Notes under the pieces: generated by a model | Databases searched by the model: none | Seen by the model: only the letters and a program-made list of their open reading frames with translations | What the model was told of the DNA's origin: nothing | Shown: piece by piece, positions 7,782 through 43,582 of the stretch | Position numbering within the stretch: the first letter of the stretch is position 1 | Layout: the number at the start of each line of letters is the position of its first letter | From: Escherichia phage slur02 | Strand: one strand, 5' to 3' | Length of the DNA stretch: 64,000 bases | Sequence record: NC_028927.1 | Made by a program: the position numbers and the translations under genes

Positions 7782-9959
7782 TTAGGCCGCAAGGGCCTTC
7801 ATAGTTTTAGCGATTTGGGAAACTTCATCATCACTTAAAGAGTTGCGATAACCGATGAAGTCGGAAACAATACGGAATTTCTTGGTAAACTCAGCAACCA
7901 TTTTATCACTGTTTTTTGAAGCATTATTTGATAATACATCAAAAAGATTAGTTACTGTCCAGATGTCATGACCAATGGTATCTTTTCCACCATTAAAATA
8001 TACACCGCGCAATGAACTAACTATATTAGCGAGTCGTGTATATTCTTCAGAAACTTCATCTGTGCTGAAGTACTTCATCATAAAATCTAGTTCAGGATAC
8101 TTGATAATTTTATCAATATATCGTTGAGCTGAACTTGAATAACCTACGTACTTATCATAATCTACATCATCAAAAGCATCTACATATAAATCGCGCAAAG
8201 CTTCAAAAATACATTGGCACTGACCGAGTTCTTTTACCTTTTTCTGCAAAAGCGGACGAATAACATAAAACTCATTAATGCCAATAATATTAGCCATACG
8301 AATCAAAATATTCATAGATGGATGACAAAGAGATGTAGTACCATCCATAGAGAAAATATCAGAACGATGCATATACGCTACATAACCAGTAATTTCATCT
8401 GCTTCTGATGTGAGCGTAAATAATTCCTCTTTTTCCCAGCGCCCGTCTTTAATTTCAAACTTAAATGCTGTAGCAGCTTTAGGACGAGGAGCTTTACTTT
8501 TAACTACCTTTGGAATATAGCTTTTAACTAAAGCTTCAATTTCTGACAAATAATGAATGTTAACTTCATCACTTTCAAACATCGCCATAATATCAGGGAG
8601 TAAATCAATCTGCGATTCTACTTCTGGATTAATAAACAGAAGACGCTCATTATGATGAATATTCAGAGTGTTATTAAATTCACTATCATCTAACGCACGT
8701 GCTAATCCACGGACAATATTAACACGATTTTTAATATTATCAATAACGATATTAATTTTTGTTGTATTAATACCAAACAGACGATAACTTGATGCAACGG
8801 CTGAAGTTTCATGACTTTGCTTAATGCGCTTCAGTCGAGGGTCAAGATTTACTTCATACACAACTCCCGCGTTGCATAACTTACTGTCAGGTTCAAACAT
8901 GCTCTGCATCTTTTTATATGACAGATTTTTAGTCGTGAATTTGACTGAATTGCTAATCATATAATCTCGAGCAGAATACCCCATCTTCATCAATTCACGG
9001 TATGTATGACGAGGAGATGTAGATTCTTTAAATCGTTTTACATCTTCATTAAATGCTTTCTCACTGAGTTCTTTAACTCGTTCAATAATATTTTTACGAG
9101 TACGATCATCCAGTGAAAGAGCCTCGCGAGATGGAGCAATATCAAGCGAACCCATTGGAAACTTAATGTAATTCACTTCATTGCGGATGCTTAACCAGTT
9201 ACGGTCTCTAATAACACCATCGATAGGATAAACAATACCGCCGTAGATAGCATATAATCCACCACGATCTGGCCAGTATCTTTCTGGATTTACACCGTAA
9301 TAATCATCAAAATCCGGAAAATAATCAATTTCGCGGTCAAGACCATTAATGATAGCCAAATCTTTGAACGGTCGCATGATATAAGAAACTTCATAAGCAA
9401 AGTTTCTAAAGTCTTTTTCTTCAACTGGAACTACGATTTCAATACCAGTTTTATCATCTGGACCCATTTCTTTTACGAATGTAGGTTTAATCTGTGGACC
9501 ATCACCATCCATATAAGCTACATAACCACGAATTTCACCTTTATGATACGAAGTAATACTAAATGTATCAGTATAACTAAACGGAGATTTAGAACCTAAA
9601 CCAAATCCGCCAATGAAATCGTTAGATTCAGCCTTAGATGAACTGAAGTATGAATTATACAGACCAGGAGAATTATCATCACCCTGAATATCAAAATCAC
9701 TCATACCGGGACCAAAATCTCGGCAAACAAATCGTGGATCTAAACGTCCAGGAACTTGTATGATAAATTTTTCAGGATTTCCATTGAGTGCATGGGCATC
9801 AATCATGTTGGTAATCAATTCACGGACTACTGCGCGAATTTTGTTTGTATACAAATCAGATGACAGAATTTTAAATACTTTAGGAGATGCTGTGATGCTA
9901 AATGCTTTTGATTTAGAACCATTACCAAGAATTGTTTCTTTTTCAGTGGTGATAATCAT
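7782..9959 (-). CDS. rIIA: RIIA protein (GHKL ATPase-like N-terminus)
   Basis: 725 aa, same length as T4 rIIA; motif [11 protein letters not shown]. Confidence 0.9.
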
Positions 9960-12384: not shown

Positions 12385-12752
12385 TTAAATTTAATGGCTT
12401 GAAGAAGACTAATAATTCTCAAGCGACTTCTTTCATCTTTAACTGTAAAAGAAAGAGGGTCACCAGATTTCATAGTAATAGTACATTCAAAATCAAAATC
12501 TTCGGGAACTTCTTCGAATAGGTCAAATTCTTCATCATAAATTAGAACATTACTCTGAAAACTGTGAAGAATTTTTCCATCATTTCCAGATGCTGTACTA
12601 ATCATTGTAACATTATTACCTTTCATATCTTCAACGATAAATTCGCTTGTAGATATTACATTACTAATAGAACCATTCCTATAAATAGCAGAAAATAGAT
12701 ATTTCTTTTCTTCACCTTCGCGAATACGATACTTCTTACCGATTTTAAACAT
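12381..12752 (-). CDS. hypothetical protein (123 aa)
   Basis: Track ORF; ATGA coupling. Confidence 0.55.
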   Translation of the reverse strand: MFKIGKKYRIREGEEKKYLFSAIYRNGSISNVISTSEFIVEDMKGNNVTMISTASGNDGKILHSFQSNVLIYDEEFDLFEEVPEDFDFECTITMKSGDPLSFTVKDERSRLRIISLLQAIKFK

Positions 12753-16209: not shown

Positions 16210-16484
16210 TAAATTTTCCTCGCTAAATCGCGAATTTGACCTACAGTATAATCTTGGATATAAACTTTATTAATGGGCTCATCAATAAATTTTGCCATAG
16301 ATTCAATATCTTTTTGTATCTCTTCAAGACTGTATACTATCTTTAAAGCTTTTTCGCGAATAGTAACATTATCAGGTCCTGGATTTTCCTCAATGACAGC
16401 TTTGACATTTGTCATAAGAGATTTAAACTGATGCAAACTTAATTCAATCATTAATAATCGCCTTATAAAGATGGCTAATTTCAC
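16209..16484 (-). CDS. hypothetical protein (up to 91 aa), paralog of 16444..16704
   Basis: Shared motif LEEI..D.......I.DY..G.I..L; start uncertain. Confidence 0.45.
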   Translation of the reverse strand: MKLAIFIRRLLMIELSLHQFKSLMTNVKAVIEENPGPDNVTIREKALKIVYSLEEIQKDIESMAKFIDEPINKVYIQDYTVGQIRDLARKI

Positions 16485-16704
16485 CTAAAATGTAATCACT
16501 GATTGTAACAGTTTTTACTTCACCACAAAAGAATTCTAACGCAATCAAATCTCGTTCAATTTCTTCCAATTGAAGCATTAACTTGCCTGATTCAATTTTT
16601 ACATTTCTGCGATTTTTACTATAAGCTATTTCATATATTTCGCTCACTTTATCTTGAAGTAGATAAAACTGGTCTTTAGTTATTTCCACGAATAGCTTCC
16701 TCAA
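16444..16704 (-). CDS. hypothetical protein (86 aa), paralog of 16209..16484
   Basis: Track ORF; sequence similarity to neighbour. Confidence 0.45.
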   Translation of the reverse strand: MRKLFVEITKDQFYLLQDKVSEIYEIAYSKNRRNVKIESGKLMLQLEEIERDLIALEFFCGEVKTVTISDYILGEISHLYKAIIND

Positions 16705-16710
16705 ATTTAA

Positions 16711-18030
16711 TCATACGTAAAACACATCATAACGACCACGAGTGACACCAACATAAAGAAGCTGCTGAGCTAGTTCAGCATCTGCATAATGAATACAAGG
16801 CGTATAGATAAAAGCACGGTCTACAGACATACCCTGAGCTTTATGGAATGTTGACGCAGGAAGTGCTTTCACTTTACTAAACTGTGATTTAGCATCCCAA
16901 AAATCACTCCACGGAGCTTTTCCACCTTTATTCCAATTTTTGTAAGTTTCTGCCGTTTTACCTAAAAATAAGTTAAACTTATACAGCTCTTCATCAGATG
17001 AAATTATTTTAATCTTTTCACGATAATATTCATCATCGCCGTAAGTTTCTACTGTTAAATCCCAATGACGAATTAGATATTCTCCAGAAACACCACGAGC
17101 TTTAACAAAGGTTGATGTATACTCTGCTTCTATAATACGAACTAATTGTCCGTTATTAAAAATAATTTCTGACACAGGCTTTCCATCAATTTTATATGTT
17201 TTAATTAATGGTTCCTGCATTACAATAATTTCACCGACAATAAAATCTTTATCAGTTTCAAAAATCTTTTTACGAATAATGCTATTTAACTTATCAACAG
17301 ATTTATTCGTAAATGCCATTACGCGATTTTCAAACAAATCATCTAGTGATTTGACGATTGAAAAATAATTTACCATAAAATCGCGTAAAGCGGTATCACC
17401 GGTAAATCCACGTACTCCATGACCGTCAACAACTTTATCATAAATCCACTTACCGTTACGAACGTCAGTAGCTACATCAATAATAGGAGCATTACTGCGT
17501 TTAACTTCAGTGAGTTCACACTGATAAAAGTCTTTGTGTGTAAAGAACGGACTGATATAAGCAGTGTTTTCTCCTGGGTCAACAGGTCTAATTTGCTTAT
17601 TATCGCCTATTCCAATTATAGTACACCATGGTGGAATAGTTGAAAGCAGAATTTTAAATAGCTTTCTATCATACATTGACACTTCGTCGCAGATTAATAC
17701 CCTGCATTTAGCTAAATCTGGTACTTCCTTCTGCTCAAAAAGAACATTTTCTTCATATGTTACTGGGTTAATTTTAAGAATACTATGAATAGTACTTGCT
17801 TCTTTCCCTGATAGTTTTGAAAGAATCTTTTTAGCTGCATGAGTAGGAGCTGCTAAAATAATACCAGTTTCACCCGTAGATATTAAAGCTTCAATGATGA
17901 ACTTAGTAAGAGTAGTCTTACCGGTACCGGCAGGTCCATTAATAGTTACATGGTGTTTCTTTTCTTTAATAGCCTTCATAATAATGTTAAAGGCATTTTT
18001 CTGGCCTTCGGTCAAATCATCAAATGTCAT
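16711..18030 (-). CDS. dda: Dda DNA helicase (SF1B)
   Basis: 439 aa; Walker A GPAGTGKTT; length as T4 Dda. Confidence 0.9.
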   Translation of the reverse strand: MTFDDLTEGQKNAFNIIMKAIKEKKHHVTINGPAGTGKTTLTKFIIEALISTGETGIILAAPTHAAKKILSKLSGKEASTIHSILKINPVTYEENVLFEQKEVPDLAKCRVLICDEVSMYDRKLFKILLSTIPPWCTIIGIGDNKQIRPVDPGENTAYISPFFTHKDFYQCELTEVKRSNAPIIDVATDVRNGKWIYDKVVDGHGVRGFTGDTALRDFMVNYFSIVKSLDDLFENRVMAFTNKSVDKLNSIIRKKIFETDKDFIVGEIIVMQEPLIKTYKIDGKPVSEIIFNNGQLVRIIEAEYTSTFVKARGVSGEYLIRHWDLTVETYGDDEYYREKIKIISSDEELYKFNLFLGKTAETYKNWNKGGKAPWSDFWDAKSQFSKVKALPASTFHKAQGMSVDRAFIYTPCIHYADAELAQQLLYVGVTRGRYDVFYV

Positions 18031-18338
18031 CGTAAATTCCCTGCAATTGGTATACTAACAATACGCCCAGTATCTAAAATTCGCTGATATAATCTTTGCG
18101 TGTCTACATCAGGCTTAACATGTTTAACTTCTATTTTATTAAACCAAAATTTACGTGGGGTCTCAACTAATCTCGGAATTCCCATACCTAAAGCTAGTCG
18201 ATACTGCTCTTTAAGAGTAGTAAATACTTTATCAGCAATCTCCCTTTCAAAAAATACAGCAGGACGATGTTCATCAAGTGGAACTGGCGCTGTAAATCCG
18301 TCTTTGTCTCGGTAAACTATCGCATATACATAAACCAT
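18027..18338 (-). CDS. hypothetical protein (103 aa), dda.1 position
   Basis: Track ORF; ATGA overlap with dda. Confidence 0.55.
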   Translation of the reverse strand: MVYVYAIVYRDKDGFTAPVPLDEHRPAVFFEREIADKVFTTLKEQYRLALGMGIPRLVETPRKFWFNKIEVKHVKPDVDTQRLYQRILDTGRIVSIPIAGNLR

Positions 18339-18339
18339 A

Positions 18340-19086
18340 TTATCCTCGGATAAGTTTAAAAATTGAACAATTTAGCGGGTATCCTCTTTTCAGTTTAAGT
18401 TTATCAATAAAAGACAAATTTTGATACCGCTCTACACCTTGAATAATTTTATCACACATATCATATTGCATTTCTGCTTCTGACAGCTTTTTCACAATTT
18501 TCCAATCCGAGCCTTTAAGAAGAACGTTCAATTTAACAACTTCAGCGCCTTCTGCTATGCGAGAACCATCAATACGTGCTTTAAGTGCTATAATCCTTAG
18601 CTTAATGTCAGAGGTCTGTTTTGATTTAGAAAGCTGAGAAATGTGTTCAATTCGGTTTTCACGTTTTTTCTGTATAGCTTTAATTTGATTATAAGTCTTT
18701 TTGATTTTAGCCCATTTCTTTTCATCTAAATTTAGTTTATGAACTTTTTTCGCAGATGAACGACCAATTCGCAAAGCAAATAAATCACGCTTTTCAATCA
18801 ACTCTTCTAAAGTATAATCAGAACGAAATGTATTATACTTTTTCTTTACTGCAATAACATTCCCTTTAATGTATCCAACGTTATTATCAAAACGTTCTAA
18901 TGATAATTTCTCTCCTTCAACACGATTATCAAAAGGTTCTCCTGAGTAAGCACAAACTTTCTGATCTAAAATGTTCTTAATGTAATTGAAGTCTAAGTTA
19001 AAATCTTTAGAACGTCTTTTTGCAGATGCCTGGGTATGCTCTAGACGACGTTTAATTTTACGAATTTGGTTATTAGACAGCTTCAT
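18340..19086 (-). CDS. srd: Srd-like protein (248 aa)
   Basis: Position between dda.1 and modA as in T4; basic, coiled-coil-rich. Confidence 0.5.
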   Translation of the reverse strand: MKLSNNQIRKIKRRLEHTQASAKRRSKDFNLDFNYIKNILDQKVCAYSGEPFDNRVEGEKLSLERFDNNVGYIKGNVIAVKKKYNTFRSDYTLEELIEKRDLFALRIGRSSAKKVHKLNLDEKKWAKIKKTYNQIKAIQKKRENRIEHISQLSKSKQTSDIKLRIIALKARIDGSRIAEGAEVVKLNVLLKGSDWKIVKKLSEAEMQYDMCDKIIQGVERYQNLSFIDKLKLKRGYPLNCSIFKLIRG

Positions 19087-20689: not shown

Positions 20690-21160
20690 CTAGCGATAAA
20701 AACCAAATTGACGATTAGCTTCAATAATCTTTCTTTCTTCTTCGGACATTCTCCAGCGTAGTCCAACATCAAAATGAGCCCAGACCATCTTAACGAATGC
20801 ATTTATATCTTTAATATCTTCAATAATGAATGTTTTACTTTTAGAAGGTTGACTCGCTAATTTAACTTTATCGTCTTCAAACAGGTCAAAAAGACCATAT
20901 TCATGAGCTCTTTTATAGCCTTTAATAGTTAAAGCTTCAGAAGAAGAAAACGGTGAATCAGTATTCTGCAAAATATCTTCAGTATGCTTTATAATTAGAA
21001 TAACATTTTCTGGGTATTTTCTTTCTTTTATATCTTTAATTAAAATATCCGGATTTTCTGCTAAAGGAATAATTAATGAGCACTTTTTGTCAAGTGTATT
21101 TACTGATTTACCTTCTTTAGACATAAATTCTATTGAATAATGTTTTGCTACTTCAATCAT
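20690..21160 (-). CDS. hypothetical protein (156 aa), mrh region
   Basis: Track ORF; synteny only. Confidence 0.45.
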
Positions 21161-21313
21161 GTGATTTCCTCTTGCCTACTAATGGGCCGTCAGGAATTTT
21201 GTTTTCCTGGATATATTTCTCATTTTCTTCCATCATTTTACTGCCAATTTTAAGAAGCAAATCCAGTGCTTCATTTGCTTTAGCTTTAGCCTCTTCCAGC
21301 GTCATATCTTTGT

Positions 21314-21517
21314 TCACGATTTATCCCCATAGATGTCTCTCATCAATTTAAGCGCTGAGCGTTCTAATTTCTTTTCTTTCTCAGCACTAATCATTGATTT
21401 CATCCATTCTTCCGATTCGTTCTGCATTTCTTTATTTGCTTGTTCAACCCAACCATCATCAATGTACATTGAGTTTGGTCTATTGAACCATTCAAGCATT
21501 TTCTTCAGAACTTTCAT
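21314..21517 (-). CDS. hypothetical protein (67 aa or shorter)
   Basis: Track ORF; start uncertain because of overlap. Confidence 0.4.
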
Positions 21518-21989
21518 TTGTTTTACCTAAAACAACAGTAGGAGCATCATCAAATTCATGAATTTTTAGCAAATTTGGATGTAAACTATTCCATACAGAA
21601 GAAATAAAGTATGATAAAGCATCTTCACTCACAATTATAAATTTATTTCCTTTATCTATTTTCCAGCTATATACTGAATCATACGAATAGAAAGATAAAG
21701 GTTTATCATTATATTGTTCTGCGCTAACATTGATGTATTCGGATTTAGTAAATGCTTCAATTGCTCTAAACGGAATATTTGGTACAGTTTCAATAATTCC
21801 GATCTTTTTAAGTTTTATTTCAGCATCTTCTGGAACTGGCATTGAAACAAAATTTTCTACGAGATACATTGGGTCACAATAACCCTTATCAATCATTACT
21901 GCTACGGTAATTGGAACGTCTTTAGCAAACGACATACTATTACTGCTAATATACATTTCAAACAAAATCGCTTCCATAATTTTCCTCAA
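21492..21989 (-). CDS. hypothetical protein (165 aa)
   Basis: Track ORF; ATGA coupling. Confidence 0.5.
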
Positions 21990-22327
21990 TCACAAGATGT
22001 AGATGAACAACTAGAATCACAAGAATTTCCACATGAATCGCCCGTCAATACATGAACAGGAACATTAGTGTCATATGAATCAGAACTAGACTGTGTATTC
22101 TGCGTATTAGATGATGTAGTAGGTGTTGACCAGCGCCAAGGATTTTTATAATATTCTTGGGCTTCTTCATAAGTCATAGTAACTGCTTCTACTGTTCCAT
22201 CTCCCATATAAACATATTCAACTACAGTTAAAGGAAGATAGTCATTTGAAATAGGAACTACACCTTCTCCAGGAGTCGTAGAGAAAAAATCTTTAAAGAA
22301 ACTTTTAAACCAATTAAAGATAAACAT
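21986..22327 (-). CDS. hypothetical protein (113 aa) with Cys/Ser-rich C-terminal tail
   Basis: C-terminus [18 protein letters not shown]. Confidence 0.5.
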
Positions 22328-22891: not shown

Positions 22892-23101
22892 TTAAATTAC
22901 AAGACTATTTATAATAAATTCTTGCGGAACGTTAAAATACCCAATTTTAGTTAATATAACAACATCACCGTTAATAATTACCGGAGAATAATCGGCTGGA
23001 GCATTAAACTTCCAGTGGGCTCTAATATTATATCCATCAGAACCAAATGCTCGACTAGCAGGTCTACCGGCTTTTTGCCATGCATAAAAATCAAATTTCA
23101 T
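22892..23101 (-). CDS. hypothetical protein (69 aa)
   Basis: Track ORF. Confidence 0.45.
   Translation of the reverse strand: MKFDFYAWQKAGRPASRAFGSDGYNIRAHWKFNAPADYSPVIINGDVVILTKIGYFNVPQEFIINSLVI
22903..22915 (-). promoter_or_regulatory. late promoter of soc
   Basis: TATAAATA on minus strand about 30 nt upstream of soc ATG. Confidence 0.6.
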
Positions 23102-23301
23102 TTTGAATGCTCTATAATTAATTTTAAGGCTTCTTCATGCAACCACTTACCTGGTATATGTCCAGTTTTAATTGTGTGAGCTTTGCGGAGCTGATTAGAT
23201 AAGAGCTCACATATGAGCTCTTTGTCATAATTTTTAAATAGCTGGTCAATACGTTTCTTGCGGGCTTTCTTAAGCTGACGTTTATTTAAACGAGCCATCA
23301 A
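23098..23301 (-). CDS. hypothetical basic protein (67 aa)
   Basis: Track ORF; ATGA coupling. Confidence 0.45.
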   Translation of the reverse strand: MMARLNKRQLKKARKKRIDQLFKNYDKELICELLSNQLRKAHTIKTGHIPGKWLHEEALKLIIEHSK

Positions 23302-23816
23302 TAACCTCGGTCTTGACGAGCAAAGTTTTCAGCATTTTTCAGATAATAAAGTTTAAAGATTTCTTCAGCCGTAAGACCGAGACCTTGGAACATGTTCAGA
23401 ACGAAATGAAGAATATCAATCATTTCGAATTTAATTTCCAACTGGTCTTGTGGAGACAAATCAGTAATTAGAGTTTCACGACGTTCACCATGCTGTGACT
23501 TCCAAGGTTTCCATACAGCAGATGCATCTTTTTCACCATTGCTCATACCGCCAAGAGAAGTCAGAAGTTCACGGAATTCATCATCAATGTAATCTTTCTG
23601 ATTACGCAGCCAATCAACAACTTCGCCTGCAGTAGCCAAATCATCAGGATGACGGTTATATTCAGGTTTATCTTTAGCTAAACGAATCTGCAGAGATTTC
23701 TGCATGTCAAGCATTACCTGCAGCGGGTCTTTTTCATCACCGAGAATATCCCAATATTCATTTTGAGCTTTATCAGCGCCTTCAATCAGTTGTGAACATT
23801 CATTAAAATATGCCAT
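23298..23816 (-). CDS. 56: gp56 dCTPase/dUTPase (MazG-like NTP pyrophosphatase)
   Basis: Track ORF trimmed to MAYFNEC... start with AAAGGAAAAATA SD; about 172 aa. Confidence 0.85.
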   Translation of the reverse strand: MAYFNECSQLIEGADKAQNEYWDILGDEKDPLQVMLDMQKSLQIRLAKDKPEYNRHPDDLATAGEVVDWLRNQKDYIDDEFRELLTSLGGMSNGEKDASAVWKPWKSQHGERRETLITDLSPQDQLEIKFEMIDILHFVLNMFQGLGLTAEEIFKLYYLKNAENFARQDRGY

Positions 23817-23850
23817 TATTTTTCCTTTCAATTCATGGGTTAGTAGATTA

Positions 23851-23876
23851 ATTATACAATAAATATATAAAGCAAT
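23851..23876 (-). promoter_or_regulatory. MotA-dependent middle promoter candidate for gene 56
   Basis: TTGCTTTA MotA box, about 11 nt, TATAAT. Confidence 0.5.
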
Positions 23877-23887
23877 AAGGAGGACAT

Positions 23888-24088
23888 ATGGTACAAAAAT
23901 TAATGGCACTTGTTGATGCCATAAAAGGTAATAAAAAACGTATAGCTTTTACTATTTCTGCTATGGTAGGAATTTTACTCTGGAACTTTATTTTATCACC
24001 TGTTGCAATTGCACATGGTATTAATATTCCAGTAGTTACTCTTGATACATTCGTAGATTTAGCATTTGCTTTAGTTGGGTTAATTTAA
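23888..24088 (+). CDS. candidate small hydrophobic protein (65 aa) on opposite strand
   Basis: Only plus-strand ORF lying in a minus-strand intergenic region; AAGGAGG 4 nt before ATG, though that sequence also overlaps the gene 56 middle promoter on the other strand. Confidence 0.25.
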   Translation: MVQKLMALVDAIKGNKKRIAFTISAMVGILLWNFILSPVAIAHGINIPVVTLDTFVDLAFALVGLI

Positions 24089-25113
24089 ATCTTAGCATAT
24101 TTAGATAGCCGCATTTTAGCCATCAACCCCTGGGCAATATTATTTTTCATATATTCCATAATTTGTTCAGGGGTTGCACCTTCCTTTCTAATCATATCAT
24201 TAACATCTTTTGATTTCCAGGGAGATTTATCCCAAAACATAACCCTTTCTCCTGCATCAACTAATTTAGTCATTCGCTTAATAGTGTCAGGATGACGAGG
24301 TTCATTATCTAAAACCCACACTCGTCTATCTTTAAATGGAACAACTTCTAGGTCTAATTGACCACCCGTAATAGCTATACCATTTTCAATAAAAAGTGAA
24401 TCTATAGGTCCTTCTAGAACATATACATCACCATCTTTAACTCGTTCGACTCCATAGATTTTTGTTGCTTCAGGATAAGCTTTGATAGTGATATATTTTT
24501 GGGGAGCATCTTTCTTTAATGCACGTCCTTGAAAAGACTCAGCTTTTCCATTAGCATTATAAATTGGAATAACAAGACGAGGCTCAGGTATTTCCTTTTT
24601 ATATGTTCCCGGTGCTATGCTATTAACTAATTTAGGCCATTCAGTTGTAAACCAAAGATATTTCCATTTATCCTTTGGAATACAACGAGCTTTTACATAT
24701 TTTATAATTGGATGGTCTTCCGCCAGTTTATCTAATCTAACACATGACGGAAGAGATTTAATTATTTTCTTCTCAGGTTGTTTAGGAAGTTCTTTAGGTT
24801 TTTCTACTGGACGACTTTTACCTTTTTCTTTTCTTATTTCAAAGATATACTCACGATATAAATCAGGTTCAAACTCCTTTAAATATATTCCGATTGGTGC
24901 ATGATAGTTACAGTTATAACAATGAATATTTCCTTCATTATTATCACCATAATACCATCCACGAGCTTTATTCTGGTCGGTTTTTGAATCTCCACAAACA
25001 GGACATCTAAACCGTAATTTAAAAGTTGAACTATTATTTACTTGTGTGAATTTAGGTAAATGAGCTAATGCACGGTATGCAAACTCATTATCAATCCAAG
25101 GTATTGATGACAT
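24085..25113 (-). CDS. 61: gp61 DNA primase
   Basis: 342 aa as in T4 gp61; N-terminal zinc ribbon CPVCGDSK...CYNC. Confidence 0.9.
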   Translation of the reverse strand: MSSIPWIDNEFAYRALAHLPKFTQVNNSSTFKLRFRCPVCGDSKTDQNKARGWYYGDNNEGNIHCYNCNYHAPIGIYLKEFEPDLYREYIFEIRKEKGKSRPVEKPKELPKQPEKKIIKSLPSCVRLDKLAEDHPIIKYVKARCIPKDKWKYLWFTTEWPKLVNSIAPGTYKKEIPEPRLVIPIYNANGKAESFQGRALKKDAPQKYITIKAYPEATKIYGVERVKDGDVYVLEGPIDSLFIENGIAITGGQLDLEVVPFKDRRVWVLDNEPRHPDTIKRMTKLVDAGERVMFWDKSPWKSKDVNDMIRKEGATPEQIMEYMKNNIAQGLMAKMRLSKYAKI

Positions 25114-25280: not shown

Positions 25281-25325
25281 ATTAACCTCTATTCATAAAA
25301 GCATTAAAAATTTGGTCATCAATAG
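25278..25325 (-). repeat. 48-bp direct repeat copy 1 (gene 3' end plus stop/start junction)
   Basis: Near-identical to 25636..25683 (1 mismatch). Confidence 0.8.
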
Positions 25326-25638
25326 ATGGAATAGCAACCTTTTCGGCATCATTTAGCAAATCATTAATTTCATCAGATAGCATAACACATGTGCCTTTAT
25401 TTCCTGTAATTGTTACTGCACAATTACGAACGTTTTCTTTATCAAATTTTAGGTTAATATTTTCGTAGTGAAAATCCTTTAATGCCGAATATATCTTTAA
25501 AATGAAATTGTCTTTTACTACAATAAACCCAACTTCACTATTAAAACGTGGTTCATGGAAACTGTAATAAACCTTTTCATCTATGAAATCGTATGAAATT
25601 TTTTCCATTTTTAAATATGAAAATTCAGAACTATACAT
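25282..25638 (-). CDS. hypothetical protein (118 aa)
   Basis: Track ORF; C-terminal 14 aa shared with 25640..26266. Confidence 0.5.
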   Translation of the reverse strand: MYSSEFSYLKMEKISYDFIDEKVYYSFHEPRFNSEVGFIVVKDNFILKIYSALKDFHYENINLKFDKENVRNCAVTITGNKGTCVMLSDEINDLLNDAEKVAIPSIDDQIFNAFMNRG

Positions 25639-25683
25639 ATTAATCTCTATTCATAAAAGCATTAAAAATTTGGTCATCAATAG
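25636..25683 (-). repeat. 48-bp direct repeat copy 2
   Basis: Near-identical to 25278..25325. Confidence 0.8.
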
Positions 25684-26266
25684 AAACATTTACTTTAGAC
25701 TGTTTTTCAGATGGCAATTCATATCCACATATTACAATTTTATGATCAATATCAAAATACACAGAAGCAATATGATTAATGATATTTTCAGTGAAGTCTA
25801 AATCGACATCAATATCTTTTTGACCAAATCCCAGAGGATAAATAATGCGAGTAATTCGATTATCTTTAACAAAGATTCCACCGACATACTCTGTACTGCG
25901 TTTAAAGTCTACACGCCGACGAAATGAAAAATATTCAGGCTCTTTATGAGCTCGGCTCATAGGACACAACGAATAACTAGAATAAGAGATGTCAAATCCT
26001 ACGCCTTCGATATGAGCCAAAGTGTCATGATTAAACCAATTATAATCGTACGCCAAATCCATTAGATTATAATATGTAAAAGGCACCGGATTAACATCAT
26101 TAGTCACAAGCATGTAATTAGCAACTGCTATAATTTCATTGTTTTTAACGAATACAAACCGTGATTGATGCGAATGACCTGGACCCGCGTTTTCACGATT
26201 AATGATATAACACTGGGCACCTTTATATTTGTATGTATCTTTGCACTTGTGCATTTGATAGAGCAT
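25640..26266 (-). CDS. hypothetical protein (208 aa)
   Basis: Track ORF; shares C-terminal SIDDQIFNAFMNR with neighbour. Confidence 0.5.
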   Translation of the reverse strand: MLYQMHKCKDTYKYKGAQCYIINRENAGPGHSHQSRFVFVKNNEIIAVANYMLVTNDVNPVPFTYYNLMDLAYDYNWFNHDTLAHIEGVGFDISYSSYSLCPMSRAHKEPEYFSFRRRVDFKRSTEYVGGIFVKDNRITRIIYPLGFGQKDIDVDLDFTENIINHIASVYFDIDHKIVICGYELPSEKQSKVNVSIDDQIFNAFMNRD

Positions 26267-30128: not shown

Positions 30129-30154
30129 ATTATAACACAATAAATTTAGGCATT
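30129..30154 (-). promoter_or_regulatory. middle promoter candidate for uvsX
   Basis: ATGCCTAA box-like element about 11 nt upstream of TATAAT. Confidence 0.35.
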
Positions 30155-31001
30155 AATCAACTGCTATTGGATGAATAGCATTAAACTTATGAAATGCTTC
30201 TGATTTTTCTTTACGCGAAACACACATGCGAAGAACCTTTAGTGGTTCATCTTCTTCACCCAACGATTTTCGTTTTTCAATATTCGATGTTTTCCAACGA
30301 GCTTGCTCTGGAAACTCTCTATTGATTTGCTCAAGCGCTCTATTATGTTTAGAATTACTGCGAATTGAACTACATCCGCCAGGAGCTTGTGCTTTTCCAG
30401 ATACAACCAGATATTTGAACAAGGCCAAATGCGGATAACCTTGATTAATTAAATTGAGAAATGCATACATATCTTCGCATAAATCAATTTTTCCATACCC
30501 AATTTGTTCTGTCGTAAGTTTTCCGAGGTCATACCATGTATTCGTGAATCCATATGAATTTTCACGATAATTACCCCAAGATGAAGTAATTTTAAAAATA
30601 GGTAGACGAGCATGGCCATGATAATACCCGCAATCCATAGCATCCTCAACATATTGAATCAATTCATAGAACTGTTCACGAGTCAATTGATTAATTTTAT
30701 CTACACAACGACGATCATCTCTTTTTCGCATTGAACTCATACGAATAGTAGTATCATCGTCAATCATCCAAATTCGTTGACCTGCATACATATCAGTAAT
30801 TGCTTTACGAGTTCCAGCAATTCCATTTACATCATCAGGAATAGTTATAATTTTAGCTCTAGACCCATAGGCATCATAATAAGCTTTTTCTTCGTGTTCA
30901 CGTACTACAATATGTGGTTCATAATCAGTCGGAAACATATCAAGGGCAGAAACTGCCCCTACACGTTGATAGCTTGGAATTACGAATTGAATCATTTCCA
31001 C
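30153..31001 (-). CDS. putative GT-A-fold glycosyltransferase (candidate DNA glucosyltransferase)
   Basis: 282 aa; IPSYQR strand and IDDD (DxD) motif; occupies the beta-gt position between uvsX and 42. Confidence 0.5.
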   Translation of the reverse strand: MEMIQFVIPSYQRVGAVSALDMFPTDYEPHIVVREHEEKAYYDAYGSRAKIITIPDDVNGIAGTRKAITDMYAGQRIWMIDDDTTIRMSSMRKRDDRRCVDKINQLTREQFYELIQYVEDAMDCGYYHGHARLPIFKITSSWGNYRENSYGFTNTWYDLGKLTTEQIGYGKIDLCEDMYAFLNLINQGYPHLALFKYLVVSGKAQAPGGCSSIRSNSKHNRALEQINREFPEQARWKTSNIEKRKSLGEEDEPLKVLRMCVSRKEKSEAFHKFNAIHPIAVD

Positions 31002-42365: not shown

Positions 42366-42381
42366 AGGGCCGAAGCCCTTT
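42364..42381 (-). terminator. terminator downstream of a-gt
   Basis: AAAGGGC-UUCG-GCCCUUU overlapping the a-gt stop codon. Confidence 0.55.
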
Positions 42382-43582
42382 ATTTTGTAATAATGTCAAA
42401 CTGTTCTTTAAAGCAGAAGCTTGAATCTTGATGCTGATACAAAAATTCATACGCTTTTTCTCGCTCACGGTCATAAAGAGCTCGGTCAGATGACAGTTCT
42501 TTAATACGTTCAAACGTTGATTCCATATCATTTTCATCAAACCAAACGATACCGCTATCATGCGAGGTCAAAGGAGTATTATCAACACGGAATTTTAAAT
42601 TTTCGCCAGTAGATTTCCAAAATACCGGAATTGTTCCACATGCACCAAGCTCGAGGTGAGTATATTCTAAAGAGCGCTGTAAATATTTTTTGTCCAACTT
42701 ACTCAACTGATAACCAAATCCGGATTTACTCATACGTTCAAGCATTTCGCTATTTACATAACGGTCAAGAATTTGCGTTGGCAAATTAGGAGCAATTTTA
42801 ATTTGGTCTACTTGATGAAGACGATAATACTCGTATGGAATTCCTTTTTCTTTAATAGGAATGAACGCTGGAGAACGTTCCAGACCTTCCATAATAGTAC
42901 TTAGTCCTGCAGGTTTAAGATGTTTTTCGTGAAAATCAAACATCTGATAAAAACCTTTCCATGTAGTCGTACGACCAATCCAGCGGTTGATATTCATATT
43001 AATTTCAGAAACATCTTTCCAGTAGGTTGACCGAACCTTCGCAATATCCATAGGAGGCTGAAAGTTATATACTGTCGGCGCTTCTTCAATATCATCAAAC
43101 AAAGAAACTGTTTCAGGATACCATTCTTTCATCAGAACTTTATTAAAATCACCATTATCAGAATGGCTAAAAATAACATCAGCTCGACGAACAGTTTCTT
43201 CTAATCCCAAATTTCGACGCAAAGAAAGAGAAGAATGGTCATGCTGATAAACTACAACACGAACAGAAGGTTTAATGTTATCAATAATTTTTTTATAGTT
43301 ATTAATAGTGTCTTCTTCAACCGAAGTAGCAGGAACTGAATTGATAATTAGAATATCACAATCATTTACCAGCTTAAGTGTTTTATCGTATTCTTTTGAC
43401 AATAAAACCGGAATTGAAAATGATTTATAATCATGTGCACAGTTACGAGTAAATGATTTATCTTTAGCATAAACCAAAGTTACTTCATGACCATTTTTAA
43501 TAAACCAATCACGTTGCTCAAGAGAAAATTTAGTTACACCACAACCTTCAAGACCTCGAGCCATAAAAATACATACTTTCAT
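42380..43582 (-). CDS. agt: alpha-glucosyltransferase
   Basis: 400 aa as in T4 a-gt; N-terminus CIFMARGLEGCGVTKFSLEQRDWF. Confidence 0.9.
   Translation of the reverse strand: MKVCIFMARGLEGCGVTKFSLEQRDWFIKNGHEVTLVYAKDKSFTRNCAHDYKSFSIPVLLSKEYDKTLKLVNDCDILIINSVPATSVEEDTINNYKKIIDNIKPSVRVVVYQHDHSSLSLRRNLGLEETVRRADVIFSHSDNGDFNKVLMKEWYPETVSLFDDIEEAPTVYNFQPPMDIAKVRSTYWKDVSEINMNINRWIGRTTTWKGFYQMFDFHEKHLKPAGLSTIMEGLERSPAFIPIKEKGIPYEYYRLHQVDQIKIAPNLPTQILDRYVNSEMLERMSKSGFGYQLSKLDKKYLQRSLEYTHLELGACGTIPVFWKSTGENLKFRVDNTPLTSHDSGIVWFDENDMESTFERIKELSSDRALYDREREKAYEFLYQHQDSSFCFKEQFDIITK

Follow-up and report, generated by a model that had tools for sequence, protein, structure and literature searches.

In phage T4, the gene encoding the Dam methyltransferase lies between gene 56 (16270-16785) and gene 61 (17935-18963), at positions 16846-17625. 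The early and middle transcripts of T4 all run counterclockwise, and only its late transcripts arise from either strand (Geiduschek and Kassavetis 2010, PMC2988020). The corresponding interval is considered here in a stretch of 64,000 nucleotides from Escherichia phage slur02 (NC_028927.1), called the window below, whose positions are used throughout. In the window, genes 56 and 61 border a single small open reading frame (ORF) on the plus strand, and dam is missing. The ORF is an already catalogued, conserved hypothetical gene, annotated in other phages under such names as RB69ORF029w, RB32ORF030w, and VR7ORF033w. What can be added to the existing annotation is its coexistence with dam in T4, a likely late promoter nested within a middle promoter, and a resemblance to holins that possess three transmembrane segments (3TM holins).

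A variable slot between genes 56 and 61

The interval between genes 56 and 61 is best regarded as a slot whose contents vary amongst the genomes of T-even phages, seen here in the form without dam, which is the common one. The small ORF is its fixed resident rather than a substitute for dam, and a probability of about 80% may be given to this reading. On its plus strand, at 17738-17938, T4 carries the same 66-codon ORF, identical to that of slur04 (the close relative used as reference, described below) at 63 of 66 residues, with the same Shine-Dalgarno sequence before it and the same overlap of its stop codon with that of gene 61. The ORF, 95% identical to the copies annotated in slur04 and RB14, lies in the 309-bp gap between dam and gene 61, where nothing is annotated in either NC_000866.4 or KJ477686. 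This looks like an annotation omission, and in practice a coding sequence should be added to the T4 record at 17738-17938 (+). T2 and HY03, which also possess dam, carry the small ORF as well. An earlier note on this DNA had the small ORF sitting in the interval instead of dam; that much must be given up, since T4 has both, side by side.

The point at which the two forms diverge was found by reading the slur04 and T4 sequences side by side by eye, automated global alignment having given only a fragmentary result. Homology is continuous from gene 56 through the MotA box of the gene 56 promoter, and the flanks on both the left and the right are homologous. This box, which reads AAGCAAT on the plus strand, abuts the AAGGAGG of the small ORF in slur04, whereas in T4 the two are 878 bp apart, and the added stretch contains dam together with the region upstream of it and a late-promoter motif, GATAAATA, in replacement. 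Elsewhere the slot may be empty, or it may hold dam alone, dam plus an ORF of ~185 amino acids (T2 and HY03), an ORF of 101 amino acids (CkP1), or one of 112 amino acids (a metagenomic T4-like contig). Because the contents of the slot vary while the small ORF and gene 61 remain constant, the slot is a site of cassette insertion, and dam and other small ORFs are optional cassettes, inserted between the middle promoter of gene 56 and the ribosome-binding site of the small ORF. Those Tequatrovirus genomes that carry an insert have a common right end, GATAAATATTAATTTAAAGGAGG. Deletion of dam through recombination between the two AATTATA(C/T)(A/C)AT repeats of T4 was also considered. It was rejected, because such a deletion would have taken the MotA box with it, yet slur04 retains the MotA box.

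Annotation and whole-genome searches made use of Escherichia phage slur04 (Tequatrovirus, RefSeq NC_042130) as the reference genome. The 1.8-kb stretch that runs from gene 56 to gene 61 in the window is 100% identical to those of slur04, slur11, and slur13 and 97-98% identical to those of hundreds of other T-even-type phages. The first 127 bp of NC_042130 are repeated as its last 127 bp, and the window crosses this junction once; the repeat looks like an assembly overlap within a circularly permuted genome.

The earlier note was right to place T4's dam between genes 56 and 61, and the interval that it put at about 270 bp measures 268 bp (23817-24084), so there is no room in it for a gene the size of dam. 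It had also called for a search of the whole genome for a Dam homolog, and none was found. When T4 Dam was compared by tblastn to the entire slur04 genome, the best E-value was 1.0 (8e-177 in the control with the T4 locus), no methyltransferase is annotated anywhere in slur04, and thus no coding sequence for a GATC-specific N6-adenine methyltransferase of the Dam family was seen either between genes 56 and 61 or elsewhere in that genome. Dam proteins at least 90% identical to that of T4 are found in 182 phage records and the Tequatrovirus form of the small ORF (at least 80% identity) in ~501. By these counts, the dam-less state is that of the majority, about 64% (roughly two thirds) of Tequatrovirus records. 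The small ORF lies between genes 56 and 61 with nothing else there in RB14, Pu-Krd-SF6, RB69 (a Mosigvirus), VR20 and VR7 (Gaprivervirus), S16 (Gelderlandvirus), and pKp20 (Jiaodavirus). Four other genera of Tevenvirinae, checked at the locus, have no dam, and in a fifth genus an unrelated ORF is found there. Given these frequencies in Tequatrovirus and the four other genera, the absence of dam from slur04 is ordinary.

It is also of little weight, as dam is a dispensable accessory gene and slur04 is typical of Tequatroviruses. DNA from slur04 virions should lack methylation of GATC of the Dam type, unless an enzyme of the host adds it, and the modification of slur04 DNA presumably consists of glucosylated hydroxymethylcytosine (glucosyl-HMC) with no N6-methyladenine made by the phage. 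The glucosyltransferases themselves are annotated in slur04 as an alpha-glucosyltransferase and a beta-glucosyl-HMC-alpha-glucosyltransferase, not the beta-glucosyltransferase of T4 (window positions ~30153-30995 and 42380-43582, corresponding to 8666-9508 and 20893-22095 of the genome). We take these two to be the pair of the T2/T6 type. If they are, then slur04 DNA differs from that of T4 in its sugar pattern as well as in its lack of Dam.

A conserved gene on the plus strand

Far from arising by chance, the small ORF encodes a protein, on which purifying selection acts. The ratio of nonsynonymous to synonymous substitutions (dN/dS, by the method of Nei and Gojobori) lies between 0.10 and 0.35 in every informative pair, for example 0.10 between RB69 and a relative, and the comparison of CkP1 with S16 gives a dN of 0.14 against a dS of 1.16. 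The signal does not come from a gene on the other strand, because the ORF shares no more than 4 nt with gene 61. The protein matches the hidden Markov model (HMM) of phrog_2024, a family of unknown function, with an E-value of 4.1e-31, aligning residues 2-66 with positions 1-65 of the 65 in the profile, and all 23 of the aligned relatives match it as well. At overall identities of 25-30%, the family keeps the motif WN[FY]xxxPxAxxxGxxLPxxxL[DE], in which P38 never varies and W32, N33, and G44 hardly do. Between slur04 and RB14, the copies are 98.5% identical.

Intact copies of the ORF are found in ~690 phage records. Profile searches identified the family in Tequatro-, Mosig-, Gapriver-, Karam-, Gelderland-, and Jiaodavirus (with taxonomy checked) and in many T4-like phages of Citrobacter, Klebsiella, Enterobacter, Kosakonia, and Edwardsiella. 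HMMER searches, both word-indexed and exhaustive, added only T4-like phages and one type of E. coli prophage. A scan of metagenomes gave one further T4-like contig with the same synteny, and nothing came of IMG/VR scans with P0058 and P0054, two distant members. The order of gene 56, the ORF on the plus strand, and gene 61 is the same in RB14, RB69, CkP1, pKp20, VR20, VR7, S16, Pu-Krd-SF6, and the metagenomic contig, and the slur04 copy likewise has the position characteristic of phrog_2024, on the plus strand between genes 56 and 61 and convergent with the latter. The ORF is therefore conserved beside the primase gene, and convergent with it, in the six genera of Tevenvirinae sampled and in T4. 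Its stop codon overlaps that of gene 61 in RB69, CkP1, S16, the metagenomic contig, and T4, as it does in the window, where the 4 nt (24085-24088) fall within TTTAAA. The literature yielded nothing specific on the names of the ORF, on T4 small-protein or ribosome-profiling data, or on the distribution of dam.

The E. coli prophage, located next to yegD and alkA, is the only home found for the family that is not T4-like. Its member of 70 amino acids is the last gene before yegD (8001-8213 of the extracted loci). It adjoins a GIY-YIG fragment and lies ~1.5 kb from a gene on the other strand with a lysozyme domain, a context that is uninformative.

The small ORF was noticed in the first place as a 65-codon reading frame preceded by AAGGAGG. 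The reading frame is there, as is AAGGAGG at 23877-23883, but its length is 66 codons plus the stop. AGGAGG or AAGGAG is retained in this position in all genera. RefSeq, too, has no other plus-strand gene here, FDJ55_gp008 being alone on that strand amongst ~124 coding sequences in the stretch that the window covers. The earlier note had named two outcomes that would speak against it, a dam gene elsewhere in the genome and a small ORF with neither expression nor conservation; neither outcome came about, the ORF being conserved in the records and the six genera given above.

Since in T4 only late transcripts make use of either strand, a gene on the plus strand of this region should be late, and the small ORF would very probably be the one late gene within the early region. 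It stands alone on the late strand in ~82 kb where all other genes are on the early strand. Ahead of it stands AATAAATA, a variant of the late promoter motif TATAAATA (positions -13 to -6, upstream of a coding region) that differs from it by having A at -13. This is the commonest deviation, present in 9 of the 50 T4 late promoters listed (PMC2988020). If the motif is functional, the ORF would be read late by RNA polymerase carrying gp55, beginning from AATAAATA within the spacer of a divergent MotA promoter.

That promoter, evidently the middle promoter of gene 56 that the earlier note had placed on the minus strand, is predicted from the sequence TTATTGCTTTA-N11-TATAAT, in agreement with the pattern (a/t)(a/t)(a/t)TGCTTtA ~12 bp upstream of a sigma-70 -10 element. 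The MotA box TGCTTTA occupies 23874-23868 and the -10 element TATAAT 23856-23851, with a spacer of 11 nt between them, and the pattern TGCTTTA-N11-TATAAT is found 10 times in the window where 3.6 are expected. It occupies the place of T4's P(M)16.53, whose mot-box and -10 element are annotated in X01416 (the two were matched by eye). Because the late motif lies within the spacer, two promoters of different temporal classes would share 24 bp (23851-23874).

Sites conforming to WATAAATA are scarce in the window, about fourfold depleted (6, at 1150, 12680, 22906, 23858, 50703, and 63511, versus 24.9 +/- 5.2 expected), and only two are on the plus strand. Also, NATAAATA or TTAAATA stands upstream of the ORF in every genus, even though the upstream DNA is not homologous from one to the next. 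The motif is GATAAATA in T4, T2, and HY03, where it lies at the right end of the dam insert; AATAAATA in RB69 and in a variant of Jiaodavirus with a different neighbor; CATAAATA in VR20, VR7, and pKp20; and TTAAATA in CkP1 and S16. No credible ORF follows the other plus-strand site of the window, at 12680. The site at 22906-22913, on the minus strand, is just upstream of soc, which is a late gene.

Three observations weigh against this promoter assignment. The motif of the ORF is a variant that departs from the consensus. Transcription would be predicted to begin at or inside the Shine-Dalgarno sequence in Jiaoda-, Karam-, and Gelderlandvirus. Finally, the list of RB69 late promoters that Nolan et al. 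obtained with an HMM has no site before ORF029w.

The protein and what it may do

The hydrophobic, membrane-like character first noted in the ORF takes the form, in hydropathy analysis, of a strong transmembrane (TM) helix at residues ~19-42. The preceding 18 residues are amphipathic and basic (+5/-1). After the TM helix come a loop, HGINIPVVT, and a short hydrophobic helix, residues 52-66, that contains two Asp; the charge of the C-terminal part is 0/-2. An AlphaFold2 (AF2) model, with a mean predicted local distance difference test score (pLDDT) of 79, has helices at 2-14, 16-42, and 52-63, and in RB69ORF029w a TM segment has been predicted at 21-41 (Nolan et al. 2006, PMC1524935, Additional file 2). 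By the positive-inside rule, the N terminus should be cytoplasmic. From this we infer a protein of the inner membrane that keeps its basic N terminus on the cytoplasmic side and has a single full TM helix as well as a second, short hydrophobic one. Sequence searches of Pfam, NCBIfam, and PDB with the protein or its family produced nothing or only TM noise. A Foldseek search of BFVD with the AF2 model found the family itself and nothing more, one member of which is labeled 'Holin' in UniProt without evidence. The label 'head morphogenesis protein' that the ORF bears in T2 and BW-1 is likewise a transferred annotation with no evidence behind it.

A possible relationship did emerge with PF11351 ('Holin of 3TMs', GTA_holin_3TM), a family whose namesake is the RcGTA holin. 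Four of the 23 relatives, distant ones, match the C-terminal part of its model, with E-values of 0.03-0.1 and scores of 13.6-15.3 bits, below the gathering threshold of 24.8 bits (the holin of phage DSL-LC05, a positive control, scores 78.5 bits). All four have the conserved W at the same position of the model, as counted from the reported ranges, and holin PHROGs also give matches below threshold. A profile of a bona fide PF11351 subfamily was therefore seeded from the DSL-LC05 holin and, shallow as it is (2.2 effective sequences, Neff), was aligned by hhalign with the profile of the small-ORF family. The probability was 78.8% (P = 1.7e-5), up from 27.5% against the single holin sequence, over 53 columns, pairing columns 17-69 of the family with 68-127 of the holin, i.e., TM2, the loop, and TM3. 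The score of the real pair, 32.2, may be compared to the scores from 300 column-shuffled controls, none above 20.4, and from the reversed holin profile, 11.2. Amongst the 44 hydrophobic ORFs of the window, the small ORF has both the best and the longest match to the holin profile.

Much can be set against a relationship to holins. The window protein by itself has no Pfam match at E-values up to 10, and its hhalign probability as a single sequence is 10.6%. TM proteins produce noise of similar strength: P0055 matches a model of major facilitator superfamily (MFS) transporters with an E-value of 0.0012, and the family profile matches TM segments of nicotinic receptors with an E-value of 0.05. 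Of the parts of a 3TM holin, the family lacks TM1, the long amphipathic domain at the N terminus, and the charged tail at the C terminus. At 66 amino acids and with one clear TM segment, the protein does not have the architecture of PF11351, an N-terminal domain and three TM segments, and it scores below the gathering threshold. In none of the loci examined does an endolysin gene appear in the annotation next to the ORF, where the neighbors are genes 56 and 61. T4 t mutants do not lyse, and therefore the protein cannot be a sufficient holin. The ICP1 protein TeaA, too, shows no similarity to the family and has no PF11351 match by hmmscan. TeaA is a tested holin, assigned to PF11351 by remote homology (PMC7182436).

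On balance, the odds that the protein descends from the TM2-loop-TM3 hairpin of the 3TM-holin family are roughly even at best. A function related to lysis is a more tentative matter, and the chances are rather against it. If there is one, the protein may be an auxiliary factor of the holin or antiholin type that works in the membrane late in infection, next to holin T, and adjusts permeability or the timing of lysis. It is unlikely, though conceivable, that a second late membrane protein derived from a holin is encoded by T4 and its relatives. Such a protein, overlooked in the T4 reference annotation, would be what is left of a 3TM holin reduced to two helices, and would take part with T, RI, and RIII in lysis timing, lysis inhibition, or late depolarization of the membrane. 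Should the likeness to holins prove real, the lysis biology of T4 would gain an easily tested component. The gene is of modest interest, as one that is fixed beside the primase gene across Tevenvirinae and yet does not figure in the reference annotation of T4, the most thoroughly studied of these phages.

Perhaps instead the protein belongs to the inner membrane late in infection but serves some end apart from lysis, such as the membrane-associated assembly of the head or of the DNA-packaging machinery, or protection of the envelope of the infected cell, and its likeness to holins is a convergence of two hydrophobic helices. This may be so, even if it falls short of an even chance. T-even phages already own a complete set of lysis genes, the similarity to holins remains below the thresholds of the families and is of a strength that TM proteins produce as noise, and neither endolysin, spanin, nor antiholin genes are annotated beside the ORF in the loci examined. 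Convergence accounts less readily for a match that is ordered over its 53 columns, loop motif included, that surpasses every shuffled and reversed control, and that is the best given by any hydrophobic ORF of the window. Also, nothing was found that points to any specific alternative role.

Alternatively, the importance of the unit might be mainly regulatory, with late transcription of the plus strand running antisense into gene 61 and shutting down primase, and the peptide secondary. The overlapping stops of the ORF and gene 61 would suit such an arrangement, as would the lack of any terminator-like site on the plus strand in the 300 nt after the ORF. But it is the sequence of the protein itself that is under purifying selection, and antisense read-through is not a conserved feature, because a GC-rich hairpin in Jiaodavirus and ~200 nt in Gaprivervirus separate the ORF from gene 61. 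Regulation of this sort is quite improbable as an explanation of the unit, and an antisense role by itself is unlikely to be the conserved function.

There is very little chance that the stretch is untranslated and conserved for the sake of signals in DNA or RNA, such as a terminator for gene 61, promoters, or a sequence associated with oriA. It is true that a minus-strand terminator-like hairpin lies inside the 5' part of the ORF, that oriA is nearby in T4, and that the ORF is missing from the T4 reference annotation. The hairpin, though, is present in slur04 and T4, both Tequatroviruses, and is not found on folding the sequences of the other five genera (RB69, VR20, CkP1, S16, and pKp20). 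Substitutions fall mostly in the third codon position, with the low dN/dS given above, the reading frame survives a dS greater than 1 between genera, a strong Shine-Dalgarno sequence is present in every genus, and the motif of the protein is kept at 25-30% identity. A noncoding explanation is excluded by this codon-level evidence. Least credible of all is that the small ORF replaced dam, the two being alternative occupants of one slot, for although it is the sole gene in the slur04 interval where T4 has dam, the idea is already refuted by their coexistence in T4, where the insert lies wholly to the left of the ORF's Shine-Dalgarno sequence, and T4, T2, HY03, and other phages with dam keep the ORF, 90-97% identical, to the right of the dam cassette.

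Neighboring features and comparison with known systems

The features of the locus are collected in Table 1. The true ATG of gene 56 is at 23816, giving a protein that begins MAYFNECSQ and resembles T4 gp56. It is possible that transcripts of gene 61 are stopped by the minus-strand hairpin before they reach the promoter of gene 56.

Table 1. Features of the interval between genes 56 and 61 and its borders (window positions)
Feature	Position	Strand	Basis
Gene 56 (dCTP/dUTP pyrophosphatase), left border	23298..23816	-	ORF and translation; RefSeq FDJ55_gp007; homolog of T4 gene 56
MotA-type middle promoter for gene 56 (predicted)	23851..23874	-	Pattern match
Late-promoter-like AATAAATA, A(-13) variant of TATAAATA	23858..23865	+	22 nt before ATG; predicted start near 23871
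Junction; T4 has an 878-bp insert here (T4 16847-17724)	23876..23877	.	slur04 and T4 sequences read by eye
Shine-Dalgarno AAGGAGG	23877..23883	+	Sequence; 4 nt before ATG
Small ORF, 66 amino acids, FDJ55_gp008, phrog_2024 (homolog of RB32ORF030w, RB69ORF029w)	23888..24088	+	ORF, RefSeq, family match
Terminator-like hairpin and T-run, within ORF codons 5-12	23893..23922	-	Scan; folding in several genera
Gene 61 (DNA primase), convergent with small ORF	24085..25113	-	ORF, RefSeq

Two observations concern the surroundings. The gap between soc and gene 56 (22892-23301, minus strand) contains two small ORFs, of 69 and 67 amino acids, where T4 has the homing endonuclease gene segF. Their RefSeq names, 'head protein' and 'virion structural protein', look transferred. 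On the other side, downstream of 61.1 (25282-26266, minus strand), are ORFs of 118 and 208 amino acids with near-identical ends, SIDDQIFNAFMNRG and SIDDQIFNAFMNRD. The first matches RB32ORF033c ('similar to gp61.2') in position and size, and the pair appears to represent a partial duplication of 61.2.

The putative similarity to the holins of PF11351 would begin with a basic anchor and continue, in order, through a TM helix in which an aromatic-[NQ]-F..xP motif occurs, a loop rich in Gly and Pro that finishes with L/I-D/E, and a further hydrophobic helix with G-L at its end. The slur04 protein is half their size. The RI antiholin, holin T, and Imm of T4 are, like it, small, phage-encoded, and of the inner membrane, and the gene for holin T shares with the small ORF the late (plus) strand; the gene for Imm is early. 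A search for sequence similarity between the small ORF and RI, holin T, or Imm gave none, and the Imm and RI of the window, when compared to the holin profile, gave lower scores and matched only over short stretches.

The dam cassette of T4 occupies the same slot, between homologous flanks, with slur04 lacking any dam sequence and T4 having the additional 878 bp. P(M)16.53 of T4, the promoter for the oriA primer, likewise precedes gene 56, with MotA box and -10 element in the corresponding place. The spacer in slur04 holds, in addition, the late motif on the opposite strand, whereas the late motif of T4 lies at the right end of the dam insert. Closest of all are RB69ORF029w, RB32ORF030w, and VR7ORF033w (phrog_2024), which belong to the same family as the small ORF, share its position and its orientation, and differ from it in no material way.

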